Shown: positions 2,774 through 10,499 of the stretch, piece by piece
How positions within the stretch are numbered: the stretch's first letter is position 1
Layout of the letters: every line of letters begins with the position of its first letter
NCBI RefSeq assembly: GCF_021295345.1
Contig: NZ_JAIMJB010000006.1
Coordinates: forward strand, 25,892-89,891
Length of the DNA: 64,000 nucleotides
From: Motilimonas eburnea
Lineage (GTDB): Bacteria; Pseudomonadota; Gammaproteobacteria; Enterobacterales; CBDFNC01
Direction: 5' to 3'
Made by a program: the position numbers and the translations under genes
Notes under the pieces: model-generated
What the model was told of the DNA's origin: nothing
Databases searched by the model: none
Seen by the model: the letters and a program-made list of their open reading frames with translations, nothing else

Positions 2774-3553
2774 TTAACTTCTTGATTGATTTAAGCTGCC
2801 ATAAAACTCAGGCTGCTCCAATAAAGCCGTTAACGCCGGGTCATGCTTCAACTCTTCGCGATAACTGTCACGACGTTGCACCGCTTCTGATAAATACTTC
2901 ATCGCTTTATCAAACTGCTCCATGGCGGTGTAAGCACAAGCCAGTTGATAAAAAGCATGGCTGTTTTCTTTATCTATTTTAAGAGCTTGATGACACAGAT
3001 TGGCTGCCCACTGTGGCTCATCCAACTCTAAAACGGCATCGGCTTTATAGGTTAAGGCTTCGCAGTCGGTTGGCCTGATTTTTAATAACTCATCATAAAT
3101 AAGAATTTTATTGGCCGATGAGCTTTCCTGTTGTGCCCGTAACCAAAGTGATTGCACCTCTTGGGTTCGCTCAATTTCTTCGCGGTTTTCTTCAATATGC
3201 AGCGTTTTTTGCTGCAATTGCGCTTCAATGGCGGCAAGGCGCTTTTCATATTCATTAATCAGCTTACTTATCTCTTCATCGGCCAAGGTATGTACCCTGT
3301 CTTTGATCTCTCGAATGGATGACCAACCAACTATCACCAAAACGGACGTCGCTGCTGCGATAAGGTAAAAGAAATAAGTGACGGTGTCGGTGGCATAAGC
3401 CACAGCGCGGTCGACCGATTTATGTTCGCGATCAACTATCTGTTGGATCAACTCCTGCTTAGCTTGAGCTTGTTCAATACGCAACTGTTTTAACTCATCA
3501 AGCACATAACGCTCTACGAAAGGGTTGTACAGAGGGGCTTCAAGGGCTTCCAC
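2774..3553 (-). CDS. hypothetical membrane-anchored coiled-coil/TPR-like protein
   Basis: 259-aa ORF with one central TM segment (FFYLIAAATSVLVIVGW), flanking heptad-rich helices and a C-terminal TPR-like region. I recognise no family. Confidence 0.45.
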   Translation of the reverse strand: MEALEAPLYNPFVERYVLDELKQLRIEQAQAKQELIQQIVDREHKSVDRAVAYATDTVTYFFYLIAAATSVLVIVGWSSIREIKDRVHTLADEEISKLINEYEKRLAAIEAQLQQKTLHIEENREEIERTQEVQSLWLRAQQESSSANKILIYDELLKIRPTDCEALTYKADAVLELDEPQWAANLCHQALKIDKENSHAFYQLACAYTAMEQFDKAMKYLSEAVQRRDSYREELKHDPALTALLEQPEFYGSLNQSRS

Positions 3554-3674
3554 TGTTTGTTCAACTTGTTCGCTTTGATCTTGGCTGGGTGTTGCTGCTT
3601 GGCTATTAATGGGGGGAGCAAGCCGCCCCCCATTAACATCAAGGCAATAACGAGGCCTAGGTTAACCTTGCGCA

Positions 3675-5174
3675 TTAACTGGCCAAGCATATGGCTTGTC
3701 CATGATTATGCACTTCAACTAAAGCGGCATGCAGACTCTTCACCGCCACATCATAGTCGGCTTCATTCACCACAAACTGCATATCCACCTCACGCATGGA
3801 TTGATGCATGGCTAACACGCTAATGTTGCGTGTCGCAATAGCTTGTACCGTGCGCGCGAGAATACCCGGAATTTTCAAGTCACTGCCAATCGCTGAAACA
3901 ATGGCCACCCGCTGCTGATTGATTTCAGCCTCTGGAAAACGGGCTTCCATGGCCGCACGAATTCGCTTCACGGTTTTTAGGTTGGCGGATAAATAATGGG
4001 TTAAGGTGTTCGCATTCATATCTTTAGAAACGATATGCCCTTTAAATCTGGCAATCACCTCTAATACTTCGCGCTCGTACTGATAGAGGTTACCCGCCAT
4101 ATCTTGATCAAACAGTTCAAGGGCATAAATGCCCTTACAACCTGCGATGATCTCAACACAGGGCGATTCACTGACGTAATCCCCCGTGATCAAGGTCCCG
4201 GCATGATCCGGCTCGAAGGTATTTTTAACCCTAAGGGGGATATTTTGCTGGCGCAGTCCTTTGGCGGCTTTCGGATGGATCGCTTCCATCCCTAAGTTAG
4301 CAAGTTGATCGGCGACATCATAATTTGTACGACCAATAGGCACCGCATTTTGCTCACCCACAAGGCGCGGGTCGGCGCTGCTTAAGTGAAACTCTTTATG
4401 GATAATGGCTTCTTTAGCCCCCGTTAGCACCGCGATACGGCTGAAGGTCATTTCACTGTAACCGCGGTCAAAGGTTGACATTAGCCCCTGCTCGCTATGG
4501 GCATAGCCTGTTACTATGGGTAATTCACTGCTTAAATCTAGCTTAGCAAATGCTTGCTGGACTCTTTGGTCTAGCGATATATGCTGTTCACTTTTCCAAC
4601 CCGTTAAATCGACAAACTTGGCATTCACCCCATCACGTTGTAATAAGGTTGCCGTATTCCACGCGCTGTGCGCTTCACCAATACTGGCCAACATTTCACG
4701 CACTGTGCTTAAGTGCGAGGCCAATTCAAAGTGGCCATGCTGACACAGGCTTTTCAGGTCCAGTAAGCATTGCTCAGCATCATCAAGCTTAGTCAGTATA
4801 AATTGATTAGCCTGCTCAAGCAGTTCCCCTTCAACGAACAAGGCGGTGTTAATATCCAGTAATTGCTGCTTTAATTCAGCTAATTTCTGCTGCCAGCCGG
4901 TGTCCACCATGCTGTTAGCGAAAAGAGCATAAACTCCGGCTTGCCCGGTTTTTTTGTATTCAAGTAATTGGTCGGTAATACCGCCATAGGCCGATACCAC
5001 AAAAACGCGCTGATAAAACTGGCTAGCGCCGGGGTTTAAAATAATGTTATCGCGCACCGATTCATAATCACTCATCGATGTGCCACCAATTTTTTCTACG
5101 GTATGCATGCTACTCCTTATCATCCTTAAAACATGATCGTGACGCGGTGACCTTGGGGTTTTAATTAAGGTCAC
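3675..5174 (-). CDS. ask: aspartate kinase, ectoine-pathway-associated (Ask_Ect type)
   Basis: 499-aa ORF with aspartokinase motifs (VVSAYGGITDQLL; C-terminal ACT-like region with ...AIVSAIGSDL...). It sits immediately downstream of ectC, as in ectABC-ask operons. Confidence 0.85.
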   Translation of the reverse strand: MTLIKTPRSPRHDHVLRMIRSSMHTVEKIGGTSMSDYESVRDNIILNPGASQFYQRVFVVSAYGGITDQLLEYKKTGQAGVYALFANSMVDTGWQQKLAELKQQLLDINTALFVEGELLEQANQFILTKLDDAEQCLLDLKSLCQHGHFELASHLSTVREMLASIGEAHSAWNTATLLQRDGVNAKFVDLTGWKSEQHISLDQRVQQAFAKLDLSSELPIVTGYAHSEQGLMSTFDRGYSEMTFSRIAVLTGAKEAIIHKEFHLSSADPRLVGEQNAVPIGRTNYDVADQLANLGMEAIHPKAAKGLRQQNIPLRVKNTFEPDHAGTLITGDYVSESPCVEIIAGCKGIYALELFDQDMAGNLYQYEREVLEVIARFKGHIVSKDMNANTLTHYLSANLKTVKRIRAAMEARFPEAEINQQRVAIVSAIGSDLKIPGILARTVQAIATRNISVLAMHQSMREVDMQFVVNEADYDVAVKSLHAALVEVHNHGQAICLAS

Positions 5175-5187
5175 ATCACGTGACTGG

Positions 5188-5586
5188 CTAGATAACGTCG
5201 GCCTCTAGCTCATAAGCGCCTTGGGCGTTATGCACTTCTTTACCGTTTAACGGAGGATTAAATACACAGGCTAGCTGCATTTCTTCACTGCAACGCAATA
5301 TGTGTTTGTCGTGCTTGTCAAGAATATAGATAGTCCCCGGCGCAATGCTGTGCTTGCTGCCATCTTCTAAACTTTCGATTTCACCTTTACCTGAAATGCA
5401 GTACACCGATTCCAAATGGTTTTGGTAGTGCATTTGGAAATCAGCCCCTTTGTAAATAGTGGTGATATGGAATGAAAAGCCCATTTGATCTTGCTTAAGT
5501 AATAAGCGCGTGCTTTCCCAATTGCCGTCTGGCGATACAATTCGACGATTTGACTGATTAGCTGTGGTTAGATCTCTTACTATCAT
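5188..5586 (-). CDS. ectC: L-ectoine synthase EctC (cupin)
   Basis: 132 aa beginning MIVRDL..., with a cupin core (...[33 protein letters not shown]...) typical of EctC. Confidence 0.92.
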
Positions 5587-5839
5587 GATGTTTTTCTTCT
5601 GATTCTGTGATTAAAAGGGTCATTGGCGTATGCGCTGATACGGTAGCAATGTCTGCTGCTGCAATGTTGATTTGCGCACCATTTGATATCGCCATGATCT
5701 GACTTCGAGACATGACGCGCAGGGCGCCTTGACCTCGTAGACAGGTAAGCAGGTATGAGCCCGAGTGAGAACGGCAACTTGGTAACAAGCGCCGTTCGCC
5801 AGACCCAACTTGTATGGTTTGGCTGGGCATCATAAGTTG

Positions 5840-7657
5840 TTATGAAGCTTTAAAGTAAGCCACCGTGGCTGGAATATCGTCGACCTTTGCGCAAACTTCA
5901 GCGATGGCTGATTCAACAATATCGATGCCTTTACGTAAGTTATCGTCGCTGATAGTCAGTGGACAGAAGAACTTAACAATGTGATCGTCTGCACCACTGG
6001 TTTCGATGATAACGCCTTTGGCAAAAGCGGCCTTGGTGATCTTGCCAGCGAGTTCACCACTGACACAGTTAATACCTTGGAATAAGCCACGGCCCTTAAT
6101 AGTAAAGTTACCCGTGCCATATTGCTTAACTATGTCGGTTAATCGCTCGGTGATGTAGCGGCCTTTTCGCTTAACATCATTGGCAAATTTGTTGTCGCTC
6201 CAGTAATGGTCGATGGCGGCTTTGGCTGCCACAAAGGCTAAGTTGTTACCTCTAAAGGTACCGTTATGCTCACCCGGCTTCCATTGGTCTAGCTCAGGCT
6301 TCATTAACACTACCGCCATCGGCAAGCCGTAACCACCAAGGGATTTTGAAAGGGTAATAATATCAGGCTCAATGCCTGCTTCTTCAAAACTAAAGAAGTC
6401 ACCAGTACGACCACAACCGGCTTGAATGTCGTCAACGATCATCAGGATTTTGTGTTTACGACAAACGGTTTGTAGGTTACGTAACCATTCAATGCTCGCG
6501 GCGTTAATGCCACCCTCGCCTTGTACGGTTTCAACCAATACCGCAGCGGGCGAGTTAATACCACTACTTGAATCACTGAGTACCTTGTCGAGGTATTCTG
6601 TGGTGTCAATATTGTCGCCAAGGTAACCATCAAATGGCATTCTATGCACACCGCTTAAGCTTACGCCAGCCGCATTACGGTGATGCGAGTTACCCGTTGC
6701 AGCCAATGCGCCTAAACTCACGCCATGGAAGCCATTGGTAAACGTAACAATATTTTGTTGGCCAGTCACATTACGCGCGATCTTCATGGCCGCTTCCACC
6801 GCATTGGTCCCCGTCGGACCGGTGAACTGCATTACGTATTCCATGCCACGAGGCTTTAAGATCTTATCGTTAAAGGTTTGTAGAAATTCACCCTTGGCTT
6901 TGGTGTGCATATCTAAACCATGAGTAATGCCATCTTCTGAAATGTAGTCGAGTAAAGCTTGCTTAAATAGGTCATTATTGTGACCGTAGTTTAAGGTACC
7001 GGCTCCAGCAAGAAAGTCGAGGTATCGATTACCGAACTCATCCCACATAAATTCGCCTTTGGCACGATTAAACACGCGAGGGAATGAACGGGCATAGCTT
7101 TGCACTTCCGATTCCATTTCCTTGAATATTTCCATCACCTGTACGGCGTGGTTAACAGGCTGATTGTTAAATGGGCCGATGCGCACTAAAGACTCTGAAG
7201 CGTGTTCGCCTTCAAAGTGCTCCTGCTCTTTTAGCCACACTTTTGAATTCATTTCAGCACTTAACTTGCTAGCAAAACTTTCAAATAATGACCAAGAAGC
7301 TAAATTGTCTTGCGTAATAGTGGTTTCAATATAGTGCACCCCTTTGCAATCAGTGCGATCCAAAATGTGCTGCAGCATATCCGATGCAAGGCCTTGACCA
7401 CGAACAGAAGTCGAAACGGCCACTTGCCAAATAAACAAAGTATCAGGACGCTCAGGCACTAAATAACCAGAAATAAAGCCAACTAACTCGTCATCAAGCT
7501 TAGCTGCGACGGAAGTACTTAGGAAATGGCCACATTGTAGAAAATTACAGTAACCAGAGTTGGTATCTAAAGGGGGGCAAGATGCAACAAGTCGAGAAAC
7601 AGCCATACCATCTGTTAATTCCGGTTGGCTTAACACTATCTTTTGCATGGAAGACAA
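5840..7657 (-). CDS. ectAB: bifunctional fusion: L-2,4-diaminobutyrate acetyltransferase (EctA, aa ~1-165) joined in frame to diaminobutyrate-2-oxoglutarate transaminase (EctB, aa ~176-605)
   Basis: The N-terminal GNAT is EctA-like (...PLDTNSGYCNFLQCGHF...LFIWQVAVSTSVRGQGLA...VRIGPF). A ~10-aa linker (NNQPVNHAVQV) leads into a class-III aminotransferase that starts MEIFKEMESEVQSYARSFPRVF, as EctB does. One continuous 605-aa ORF. Confidence 0.85.
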   Translation of the reverse strand: MSSMQKIVLSQPELTDGMAVSRLVASCPPLDTNSGYCNFLQCGHFLSTSVAAKLDDELVGFISGYLVPERPDTLFIWQVAVSTSVRGQGLASDMLQHILDRTDCKGVHYIETTITQDNLASWSLFESFASKLSAEMNSKVWLKEQEHFEGEHASESLVRIGPFNNQPVNHAVQVMEIFKEMESEVQSYARSFPRVFNRAKGEFMWDEFGNRYLDFLAGAGTLNYGHNNDLFKQALLDYISEDGITHGLDMHTKAKGEFLQTFNDKILKPRGMEYVMQFTGPTGTNAVEAAMKIARNVTGQQNIVTFTNGFHGVSLGALAATGNSHHRNAAGVSLSGVHRMPFDGYLGDNIDTTEYLDKVLSDSSSGINSPAAVLVETVQGEGGINAASIEWLRNLQTVCRKHKILMIVDDIQAGCGRTGDFFSFEEAGIEPDIITLSKSLGGYGLPMAVVLMKPELDQWKPGEHNGTFRGNNLAFVAAKAAIDHYWSDNKFANDVKRKGRYITERLTDIVKQYGTGNFTIKGRGLFQGINCVSGELAGKITKAAFAKGVIIETSGADDHIVKFFCPLTISDDNLRKGIDIVESAIAEVCAKVDDIPATVAYFKAS

Positions 7658-8106
7658 AATAACTCCTTATTTAGAACTAAAATAGATTCGACTAAATAAT
7701 CTTTATAGATGTAAAAGATATTTCCAAAAAGCTGTCACCACAGCCTTATGCAAATCCCAGTAAAATAGACAAAACCCTAGTAAAACCGGGAAAAGCGATC
7801 TTAGAAATCCATAAAAATCACTTACAACACTAAATATAGTACACTAAGTATTTTTTTATCTCTACCCTCGCACAGAAAGCATGAGTCGTGAAACTCAATA
7901 TTAAGACAGCATTTTGCCTCTAAGATGATTGCGTAACACGGCAGAAAATAACAACATAAAGCAAATAAAAATCAACCACTTAAGTTACGCCTCGCAAGTG
8001 CAATGTTTTACCTACTACCCAGCCCGTTAGTTAATGATTAAATTTTTACTACTAGATCAATTTATTGATGTAACAAAGCCGCAACAATTTATTTAGACTT
8101 GAAAGT

Positions 8107-8122
8107 AATTATCGATATAATT
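8107..8122. promoter_or_regulatory. imperfect 16-bp palindrome AATTATCGATATAATT in the divergent ect/ectR promoter region; candidate MarR(EctR)-type operator
   Basis: Palindrome seen in the sequence (core TATCGATA) about 37 bp upstream of the MarR start and inside the AT-rich 500-bp divergent intergenic region. Operator role is inferred. Confidence 0.3.
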
Positions 8123-8158
8123 GCCGCACCTTGAGCACGACAGCTTGATTACTAAAGT

Positions 8159-8686
8159 TTGACTGGAGTCGATATGAATAACATAGAAGAAGTACTTGTG
8201 GCCCTGCGCAGGGTGATACGCGCCACTGACTTACATTCAAAGCACCTAGCTAAAACGACAGGCCTTACTTCGCCACAAATTTTACTGCTGCAAACCATCC
8301 GCGATAAGGGTCAGGTGACCATAGGTGAAATTGCTAATGATATGAGTTTAAGTCAAGCCACGGTAACAACCATTATAGATAGGTTAGAAAAGCGCGGCCT
8401 AGTGGTACGAGAGCGCTCAACCACGGATAAGCGAAAAGTGCATGCCTTACTCACCGAGCAGGCAGTGGAAGTATTAAAAGAAGCCCCGTTACCATTACAG
8501 GATCACTTTGCGAAACAGTTCCATGATTTAAATGATTGGGAGCAAACCATGATCATTTCATCATTACAACGTGTTGCTCAAATGATGAATGCCCAACATA
8601 TTGATGCTTCACCCGTGTTAGACGTAGGTGTATTAGATCGCCACAGTACAGACCTAGAAAAGCCCGATGCCTTTAACAATAACTAG
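8159..8686 (+). CDS. ectR: MarR-family transcriptional regulator, EctR-like, divergent from the ect operon
   Basis: 175 aa with a winged-HTH MarR core (...TSPQILLLQTIRDKGQVTIGEIANDMSLSQATVTTIIDRLEKRGLVVRERS..DKRKV...). Position and orientation match EctR-type repressors. An alternative start is at 8174. Confidence 0.75.
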   Translation: MTGVDMNNIEEVLVALRRVIRATDLHSKHLAKTTGLTSPQILLLQTIRDKGQVTIGEIANDMSLSQATVTTIIDRLEKRGLVVRERSTTDKRKVHALLTEQAVEVLKEAPLPLQDHFAKQFHDLNDWEQTMIISSLQRVAQMMNAQHIDASPVLDVGVLDRHSTDLEKPDAFNNN

Positions 8687-8721
8687 GGACTAATCAGTCG
8701 GGGTCACCTGTGCGTAAGAAT

Positions 8722-8760
8722 AAAAAAAGCCGAAGTCACCACTTCGGCTTTTTGGGTTTT
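8722..8760. terminator. bidirectional rho-independent terminator between ectR(+) and the protease gene(-)
   Basis: Stem AGCCGAAGT/ACTTCGGCT with loop CACC, preceded by an A-run and followed by TTTTTGGGTTTT. Confidence 0.75.
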
Positions 8761-8819
8761 CAAACAAATGAAGGCCTAACCTACTGGCAGATGCATGTTT
8801 CAGTGCATCGCTAAGTTAT

Positions 8820-10499
8820 TTATTGTTTGATCCAAGCATCTTTCCAAGCTGTGCCTTCCCCTGGTGCGTAAGCTGAGCCACTACACCATAGGCCAAATGG
8901 CCAACCTTTACACTGGTAGACACTGCCTAGATTGCTAACAACATCACCCGGACCATAGCTGTTACCTGCAACATAAGGCTCAACACCGGTTGGTGGCTCA
9001 GTAGGTGCTACTGTTGGCGCTACCGTAGGCGCTACTGTTGGTTCAACCGTTGGCTCTGCCGTAGGAACAGGCGTTGGTGCTACCGTTGGCTCTGGCGTAG
9101 GTTGTGGGGTTGGTTGTGGCGTAGGCTCGGTGCCACATGAAGCTGCGCCGATTGCTTTCCATACACCCCAAGGTCCTGACTCAGAAGGGTTATCACCTTG
9201 TGTCCACCATTGTGCTTGCCATAATTGACCCGCCCAAATAACTTGCTCTTTGCCTTGATAAACCGAATTCGCATTCCACTCATTTGAGCAATTGCCAGTA
9301 GGCGGAGGCGTCGGCTCAACTTGCTGTTTTGCCGTCGCAGTGACCGATGCCGTGTAAGCCGTGGTGTTTTTGTCGATACCAAAGTTTAACGCAACGCCTG
9401 CTGTACCTGGATTCGCCGCACCAAATTGAACCCCAACCGAACAAGTGGCATTTGGCTGTAAGGTTTTTGCACTACAGTAGTCAAAGGTAACCACTAAATC
9501 AGACGCAACGCCCGTCGCTTGGGTGTTCACTGAGTCTAGGGTAAATTCAACATTACCCGCATTAGTAAGCTTAAAGGTGTGCTGTTTAGTTTCACCAATA
9601 ATGAATGAGCTGAGTGTTTGTGCCTTGGTATATCCCACGCTAACAAGATCGGCAGGGCCATTATCAATAATGCCATCCACCCAAGAGCGCAACGCTGCGA
9701 TATCACTGTAAACACCATATTTGCCAGGGCGAGCACAGCCAATACCCCAGCTTACGATACCCAGTTGTACCACTTGGCCACCTTGGTTGATCACAATCGG
9801 GCCACCGCTGTCGCCTTGACAAGAATCTTTTCCGCCTTGTGAGTAACCCGCACAGAAAGCGACATCACCGATATTTTGGTAACTACCACCCGCTTGACGA
9901 CATACTGCATCAGACACCAGTGGTACATCCACTTCTTGTAATACAGTTGGTGATAAACCACCTTCTTGAGTACGTCCTAGACCGGCCACTGTCAGTAGGT
10001 CACCCTCACGAACATATTGGCTTAGGGTTCCCTCAGCGATTTGCACCGTGACCGCACCTGGTAATTGACGGTCTAGTTTTAGCAGCGCGATATCATTGGC
10101 TAGGGTTCTCGTATTGTATTGCGGGTGAATAAAAATTTGTTCTACATTGGCGCGTTGTCCATCAGCTGCGCCGTAGCGGTAACCACCCACCTTCACAGCC
10201 ACTTGGCTAGGGGAGTCACCTACCACACAGTGTGCCGCGGTCAATACGTAGCCGTTACCTAAGTAACTTGCACCACAGTAAGAACGATTACCACTGCGGC
10301 TAACAAGCTGAGTATAAAACTCCCAGTCAGCTTGATTGGCATTGCCCCCACCGACAATTCGCGGAGTAACGATCTGATCATCTTCCAATGCCATTGCTTG
10401 GCTAGGCAATAATACTGACGAGATCATCGCTGCTAAAGCAGCTTGCTTAAACATCCTTGTTGAACTCATTGCTATCTTCCTTGTTATTTGGATTGCCAA
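8820..10499 (-). CDS. secreted trypsin-like (S1) serine protease with two C-terminal chitin/carbohydrate-binding (CBM5/12-like) domains separated by a Pro/Thr-rich linker
   Basis: Signal peptide, then IVGG... with catalytic-triad motifs TAAHC and GDSGGP. The C-terminal region has two W/Y-rich ~45-aa modules (AGQLWQAQWWTQG...; YVAGNSYGPGDVV..YQCKGWPFGLWC) flanking PTPQPTPQPTPEPTVAPT... repeats. Confidence 0.85.
   Translation of the reverse strand: MAIQITRKIAMSSTRMFKQAALAAMISSVLLPSQAMALEDDQIVTPRIVGGGNANQADWEFYTQLVSRSGNRSYCGASYLGNGYVLTAAHCVVGDSPSQVAVKVGGYRYGAADGQRANVEQIFIHPQYNTRTLANDIALLKLDRQLPGAVTVQIAEGTLSQYVREGDLLTVAGLGRTQEGGLSPTVLQEVDVPLVSDAVCRQAGGSYQNIGDVAFCAGYSQGGKDSCQGDSGGPIVINQGGQVVQLGIVSWGIGCARPGKYGVYSDIAALRSWVDGIIDNGPADLVSVGYTKAQTLSSFIIGETKQHTFKLTNAGNVEFTLDSVNTQATGVASDLVVTFDYCSAKTLQPNATCSVGVQFGAANPGTAGVALNFGIDKNTTAYTASVTATAKQQVEPTPPPTGNCSNEWNANSVYQGKEQVIWAGQLWQAQWWTQGDNPSESGPWGVWKAIGAASCGTEPTPQPTPQPTPEPTVAPTPVPTAEPTVEPTVAPTVAPTVAPTEPPTGVEPYVAGNSYGPGDVVSNLGSVYQCKGWPFGLWCSGSAYAPGEGTAWKDAWIKQ

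Follow-up and report, generated by a model that had tools for sequence, protein, structure and literature searches.

A natural in-frame fusion of ectA and ectB in the ectoine gene cluster of Motilimonas eburnea

A 64,000-nucleotide stretch of Motilimonas eburnea DNA (contig NZ_JAIMJB010000006.1, positions 25,892 to 89,891; the whole stretch is referred to below as the window) contains at 5840..7657 a single open reading frame (ORF) that had been described in an initial annotation as an in-frame fusion of two genes for ectoine biosynthesis, ectA and ectB, encoding 605 amino acids. This description was upheld: the ORF, here called ectAB, lies on the minus strand, is not interrupted by any stop between its halves and gives full-length matches to both TIGR02406 (EctA) and TIGR02407 (EctB). 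The features of the gene are as follows.

5840..7657, minus strand: ectAB, fused EctA-EctB, 605 amino acids from a TTG start, an uninterrupted ORF with its stop codon at 5840..5842
7663..7668, minus strand: Shine-Dalgarno (SD) sequence AAGGAG, which precedes the TTG start (7657..7655) by 5 nt, common to the four Motilimonas loci
7166..7630, minus strand: EctA domain (residues 10-164), L-2,4-diaminobutyrate N-gamma-acetyltransferase with the GNAT fold, from TIGR02406, PF00583 and PDB 3d3s
7136..7165, minus strand: linker NQPVNHAVQV (residues 165-174), from comparison of the junction DNA with unfused relatives, its rate of nonsynonymous substitution (dN) and an AlphaFold2 (AF2) model
7133..7135, minus strand: ATG of Met175, at which ectB formerly started; at least 90% of fused proteins have kept this methionine
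5843..7135, minus strand: EctB domain (residues 175-605), pyridoxal phosphate (PLP)-dependent diaminobutyrate:2-oxoglutarate transaminase, from TIGR02407 and PDB matches
6344..6346, minus strand: codon of Lys438 in the motif TLSKSLGG, presumed from its position in the motif to be the lysine that forms the Schiff base with PLP

The protein was compared with the NCBIfam models. Residues 10-164 matched the EctA equivalog TIGR02406 (model positions 2-157 of 157) with 186.4 bits against a cutoff of 120.6, and residues 176-586 matched the EctB equivalog TIGR02407 (model positions 1-411 of 412) with 664.2 bits against a cutoff of 552.2. Pfam gave GNAT (PF00583, 58 bits) and Aminotran_3 (PF00202, 272 bits). 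A search of the PDB showed that residues 8-167 resemble the solved EctA 3d3s (E 5e-36) and residues 175-590 the solved EctB structures 9s1q (E 2.6e-167) and 6rl5 (E 1e-163); no solved chain spanning both domains was found with the ectAB protein as query. The two halves therefore belong to the EctA and EctB families by full-length scores above cutoff, by fold or enzyme class and by similarity to solved structures. Two complete above-cutoff domain matches in a single frame are far beyond chance. The junction had been given as ...VRIGPF-NNQPVNHAVQV-MEIFKEME..., with a linker of about ten residues, and was found exactly so, the linker being encoded by nucleotides 7165..7136 and the methionine by 7135..7133. 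The G+C content of ectAB is that of the window.

The PLP lysine of class III aminotransferases is Lys274 in the EctB of Paenibacillus lautus (PMC6915088). Lys438 of ectAB, which is invariant across both alignments (A1 and A2), is presumed to be its counterpart, the assignment being made by motif.

The RefSeq entry starts at an ATG three codons past the TTG (7648..7646), which gives a protein of 602 amino acids and an SD spacing of 14 nt. All four Motilimonas loci have retained the arrangement AAGGAG-5 nt-TTG, and the calculated duplex with the anti-SD sequence is -8.8 kcal/mol for the TTG start versus -5.9 kcal/mol for the ATG. The true start is thus likely to be the TTG at 7657..7655, for a product of 605 amino acids.

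The loci closest to ectAB are those of Motilimonas sp. KMU-193 (L001, 97% amino acid identity) and of two M. cestriensis assemblies (L002 and L003, about 90-93%), and its 1,818-nt open frame is identical in length in all three. Synonymous sites are saturated between Motilimonas species (synonymous divergence, dS, 1.1 to >3). In the same comparisons dN/dS was 0.016-0.046 for the EctA part and 0.009-0.031 for the EctB part. The linker has changed about ten times faster than the domains (dN 0.22-0.35 versus 0.02-0.06), and no stop codon or frameshift has ever been gained. Products of 602 amino acids have been recorded from at least four genomes (M. eburnea, M. cestriensis, KMU-193 and unclassified Motilimonas), and EctB-only products of 431 amino acids, called from the internal ATG of the same ORF, are found in GenBank for M. 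eburnea, M. cestriensis and sp. E26; the two kinds of record differ by gene caller and the DNA is the same. The ORF is uninterrupted across independent genomes and both of its domains are under purifying selection, which confirms that ectAB is a genuine, selectively maintained fusion gene.

Fusions of this kind were also found well outside Motilimonas. A protein search gave 25 further full-length fused clusters (585-643 amino acids, 61-92% identity), which include Ketobacter and Pseudomonadales metagenome-assembled genomes (MAGs) and one 3.65-Mb genome. Protein length alone is an unreliable guide to the split state, as a 431-amino-acid record may derive from a fused ORF, and the unfused comparators P0116 and P0023 were therefore checked in their DNA and confirmed as split. 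A strict in-frame stop scan was made of 80 loci from GTDB species representatives. Eleven of the 80 were fused, a frequency that is biased because the loci were picked by a procedure favouring in-frame ectA-ectB. Three of these are in Motilimonas, two in Ketobacter and two in Candidatus Macondimonas, with one each in Pseudomonadales NAT4, a Pseudomonadota MAG, Gammaproteobacteria AC2.38 and a contig of 62% G+C (L047). Four candidates, L044, L045, L078 and the truncated locus L079, were rejected as fusions, their tblastn alignments having run through a stop. An exhaustive search of 50%-identity representatives added two distant fusions of a GNAT domain with an aminotransferase, P0138 (602 amino acids, 44% identity) and P0179 (767 amino acids).

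In a tree of the EctB domains the fused and unfused forms were interleaved, and monophyly of the fused forms was recovered in 0 of 100 bootstrap replicates; the same value was obtained for the short-linker fused forms alone. Fused P0003 grouped in 100/100 replicates with the unfused P0116 of Microbulbifer sp. JMSA002, to which its EctB is 95.1% identical. Locus L081 has separate genes for proteins of 168 and 431 amino acids, and L082, with the same flanking genes, has a single gene for 605 amino acids. The EctB domain of the window is itself 85.8% identical to the EctB of Agarivorans, whose locus (L083) was verified as split in the DNA, versus at most 84.9% to the fused proteins found outside Motilimonas. 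Read from these trees and loci, EctA-EctB fusion is shown to be rare but widespread and to have more than one origin.

The 62% G+C contig L047 (JBFWQA010000007.1) is labelled as a Flavobacteriaceae MAG and carries the order ectR-ectAB (fused, 629 amino acids)-ectC-ectD-ask_ect. Its EctB groups with alphaproteobacterial sequences, and the contig is therefore probably mis-binned. It represents an independent fusion, with an unrelated linker.

EctB-like domains were also seen fused to unrelated partners (P0140, P0142, P0143, P0144, P0150, P0163 and P0169). These partners are modules of the non-ribosomal peptide synthetase type (adenylation, peptidyl carrier protein and thioesterase), a haem-oxygenase-like domain, a GARS ATP-grasp domain, dephospho-CoA kinase, ketopantoate hydroxymethyltransferase and an amino-acid kinase.

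The origin of the linkers was apparent from junctions at which a fused locus could be set beside an unfused relative. The unfused L005 reads ...GPFNSHS*PFNKRGN-M, the asterisk being an in-frame TAA, and in its fused relative L004, which reads ...GPFNISKLNKRPV-M, the ribosome-binding motif AAGAGA is retained as codons. Between L081 and L082 the difference is a 1-nt indel upstream of the TAA, which puts ectA into the frame of ectB; the old SD GAGAAGAGA now codes for Asn-Glu-Lys-Arg (NEKR) in the L082 fusion. In other unfused relatives the two genes either overlap at an ATGA stop-start or stand 8-27 nt apart; translation is already tightly coupled in them and they are one mutation short of fusion. 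At the level of junction DNA, then, the linkers, which range from 10 to 36 residues among lineages, are shown to be translated former ectA-ectB spacers. In ectAB, loss of the ectA stop codon would have allowed the short spacer to be read through in frame and become the linker; like events, whether by stop-codon substitution or by 1-nt indel, have occurred repeatedly in other bacteria.

The translation signals at the internal start were then compared. The anti-SD duplex before Met175 is +0.5 kcal/mol in the window and +1.4 kcal/mol in L001 (KMU-193), against medians of -2.2 kcal/mol for the ORF-wide background and -4.5 kcal/mol for unfused loci. Judged by these values the old ectB ribosome-binding site is decayed in this Motilimonas lineage, and for this reason EctB is probably produced only within the fusion here. 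Six fusions with long linkers (L008, L013, L017, L024, L025 and L028) have GGAG or GGGAGG 7-8 nt before the internal ATG (-5.8 to -10.3 kcal/mol), as strong as or stronger than the SDs of unfused loci; the junctions in these six precede that ATG by about 15 nt. In these long-linker lineages free EctB may be made besides the fusion, and a single stop mutation could return them to split genes.

The findings as a whole are best explained if ectAB encodes a bifunctional enzyme that is made only as a fusion of about 67 kDa with a spacer-derived linker, and this is very probably the case. The initial annotation had also allowed that the ectA stop codon was lost through sequencing or assembly error, in which case ectA and ectB would be truly separate and the frame a product of base-calling or indel error. 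The two genes are indeed separate in most bacteria, L005, L007, L081 and L083 were verified as split, and in several verified split loci one base change would join ectA to ectB. The same 1,818-nt frame is nevertheless kept in three further Motilimonas assemblies (L001-L003) despite dS above 1, so that four assemblies of independent origin, covering three species or more, agree, and this rules out an assembly error. Strong purifying selection acts on both halves (dN/dS 0.01-0.05), and there are dozens more fused clusters from isolates, MAGs and metagenomes. It had been suggested that close relatives which were uniformly split would tell against the fusion, and the closest Motilimonas relatives are all fused. 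The chance of an artefact is negligible. Cleavage of a translated single chain within its linker, to give ordinary EctA and EctB, is scarcely credible either: the linker shows little conservation, has predicted disorder and would be accessible to a protease, but there is no conserved cleavage motif and linkers vary among lineages in both sequence and length. To our knowledge there is no precedent for processing of ectoine enzymes.

The two remaining alternatives turn on the internal ATG. EctB alone might be functional, as a protein of 431 amino acids, the EctA-like part being a decaying remnant or an untranslated leader. Such a reading could draw on the 431-amino-acid GenBank products of M. 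eburnea, M. cestriensis and sp. E26, on the retention of Met175 and on a Motilimonas genome paper that names ectB and ectC and no ectA (PMC13182010). It is highly improbable in view of the low dN/dS of the EctA part over saturated dS, its full-length match above the equivalog cutoff and the strong SD conserved at the EctA start in 4/4 Motilimonas loci, with none at the internal ATG here. With no stop codon in the way, moreover, ribosomes starting at EctA must yield the fusion, and if EctA were missing the conserved ectC would be without a substrate. Alternatively, both products could be made, free EctB arising by initiation at Met175 beside the fusion and raising the EctB:EctA ratio above 1. 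The former-start methionine in at least 90% of fused proteins and the strong SDs kept in the six long-linker fusions make this plausible for other lineages. It is weak here, where the values before Met175 in the window and in L001 are weaker than the ORF-wide median and no SD is present, and for this locus dual production is judged unlikely.

Some points weigh against production of ectAB solely as a bifunctional fusion, or against parts of the wider picture. Retention of the methionine at the former EctB start leaves room for some internal initiation. The 80 GTDB loci were not a neutral sample, and independent origins were counted on neighbour-joining trees. Diaminobutyrate may plausibly be channelled, but this and the kinetic advantage discussed below are inferred purely from the covalent linkage. 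No measurement of ectoine in any Motilimonas was found in the literature, where the one trace was a mention as a genome subsystem.

An AF2 model of ectAB as a monomer, from an alignment of 27 sequences, has two folded domains (mean predicted local distance difference test score, pLDDT, 74), including an alpha/beta domain at residues 8-160. The pLDDT falls below 50 at residues 165-191, which are the linker and the first helix of EctB. EctA is reportedly a homodimer. The PLP enzyme EctB is a homotetramer, works reversibly and remains active when it carries an N-terminal tag and linker (PMC6915088), so that an N-terminal extension on EctB is tolerated in principle.

Translation of ectAB from the conserved AAGGAG-TTG start would give the fusion of about 67 kDa. 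Its EctB domain would convert aspartate semialdehyde and glutamate to L-2,4-diaminobutyrate, which the EctA domain of the same polypeptide would acetylate with acetyl-CoA; EctC, from the downstream gene, would then cyclise the acetylated product to ectoine. From the single polypeptide we infer that both activities, for steps 1 and 2, are present at a fixed 1:1 stoichiometry. With the irreversible acetylation placed beside the reversible transamination, flux may be drawn forward and less free diaminobutyrate may be lost. A more far-reaching idea is that the recurrent fusions report a general physical assembly of EctA with EctB in ectoine producers, with direct hand-off of diaminobutyrate. Since many linkers still contain the spacer, the old ribosome-binding site and the ATG, single-nucleotide changes would be enough to turn the fused state into the split one or back, and lineages could toggle between strict 1:1 coupling and an adjustable EctB:EctA ratio. 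This is speculative and on balance doubtful.

The assignment of ectAB to an ectoine operon, as originally proposed, is substantiated by ectC, by ask_ect and by a divergent gene of the MarR/EctR type. The neighbouring features are as follows.

8159..8686, plus strand, divergent: MarR-family regulator in the position of EctR (PF01047, 71 bits)
5558..5833, minus strand: small ORF of 91 amino acids, a predicted mini-cupin, from its conserved frame and an AF2 model
5188..5586, minus strand: ectC, ectoine synthase (PF06339, 194 bits; NF009806, 190 bits)
3675..5174, minus strand: ask_ect, ectoine-dedicated aspartokinase (NF006614, 756 bits, cutoff 536)

The order is thus ectR, transcribed divergently, then ectAB, the small ORF, ectC and ask_ect. 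MarR genes are also found upstream of ectA in L047, L081, L082 and L083. The 64-kb window contains no second copy of ectA or ectB. An Rfam scan of 3400..8800 found no family, and a scan with promoter and terminator consensus sequences gave fewer sites than shuffled controls; upstream of ectAB the minus strand had none.

The small ORF fills what would otherwise be a gap of 250 nt between ectAB and ectC, and is a conserved gene for 78-91 amino acids in the four Motilimonas loci and in Agarivorans. Its frame was located at about 6826..7083 in L001 and at 6831..7067 in L002 and L003. The 78-amino-acid homologue in Agarivorans (L083, 3814..4050) has the equivalent position before ectC, and a degraded trace is seen in Cycloclasticus (L007). 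The small ORF has dN/dS of 0.09-0.30. Its product is labelled 'hypothetical protein' by NCBI and has no Pfam match, and a word-based search with it returned homologues from Motilimonas only. An AF2 model (pLDDT 83, with only 4 sequences in the alignment) had cupin folds, ectoine synthase (EctC) included, among its best PDB matches (E about 1e-4, 13% identity); there are no conserved metal-binding histidines. The product is predicted from this model to be a minimal cupin.

The closest known system is the canonical ectABC(-ask_ect) operon, as in Halomonas elongata and P. lautus (PMC5924519, PMC6915088), with which the window shares its enzymes, its gene order and an upstream regulator of the MarR/EctR type. 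It differs in the extra 91-amino-acid ORF between ectB and ectC, and in that ectA and ectB are not separate cistrons, having neither a stop codon nor an SD (+0.5 kcal/mol) between them. Unfused EctBs such as that of Agarivorans gilvus are 83-86% identical to the EctB domain of the window. Single-ORF fusions of EctA-EctC and of EctA-EctC-EctD have been reported from the protists Vexillifera sp. and Azadinium spinosum (Harding et al. 2016, PMC4987115). These are likewise multifunctional ectoine polypeptides with EctA at the N-terminus, but they are eukaryotic, are known from transcriptomes only and combine steps 2 and 3 (and 4) (PMC4987115), whereas the EctA-EctB fusion is bacterial, combines steps 2 and 1 and occurs in many lineages, with evidence of its origin at the DNA level. 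In betaine synthesis, the genes for glycine/sarcosine methyltransferase and dimethylglycine methyltransferase (GMT-DMT) are fused in Actinopolyspora halophila and in some Rhodospirillaceae and Rhodobacteraceae (PMC7824335). This too is a compatible-solute pathway in which adjacent genes for consecutive steps are fused or separate by lineage, though the enzymes and chemistry are unrelated and the fusion is already described in the literature.

No description of a natural EctA-EctB fusion was found in the searchable literature, which took in several genome surveys as well as the EctB paper and the major review of ectoine. The fusion is a real variant of a known pathway, apparently undescribed before, and is built from EctA and EctB of the ordinary kind. 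In annotation pipelines its product receives only the name 'diaminobutyrate--2-oxoglutarate transaminase', or the 431-amino-acid EctB part alone is called, so that surveys based on gene lists will count ectA as missing. A Motilimonas genome paper of 2026, for example, lists two of three ectoine genes, ectB and ectC, and no stand-alone ectA (PMC13182010), which is what the fusion together with current product naming would produce. Recognition of the fusion restores a complete ectoine pathway in those genomes; it corrects pathway calls and overturns nothing.

The repeated covalent link between EctA and EctB is also a hint, of the Rosetta-stone kind, that these enzymes act close to each other; an EctA-EctB metabolon was not discussed in the ectoine reviews that were searched. 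The matched pairs L004/L005 and L082/L081 give a base-resolution view of operon neighbours merging into one gene. Ectoine is produced industrially, and these fusions, whose linkers span 10 to 36 residues, are ready-made natural candidates for ectoine engineering.

Elsewhere in the window, an ORF of 559 amino acids on the minus strand (8820..10499) has a signal-like N-terminus, a trypsin-type GDSGGP motif, a linker of Pro/Thr-rich repeats and a C-terminal Trp-rich domain. From its translation, the product looks like a secreted serine protease.

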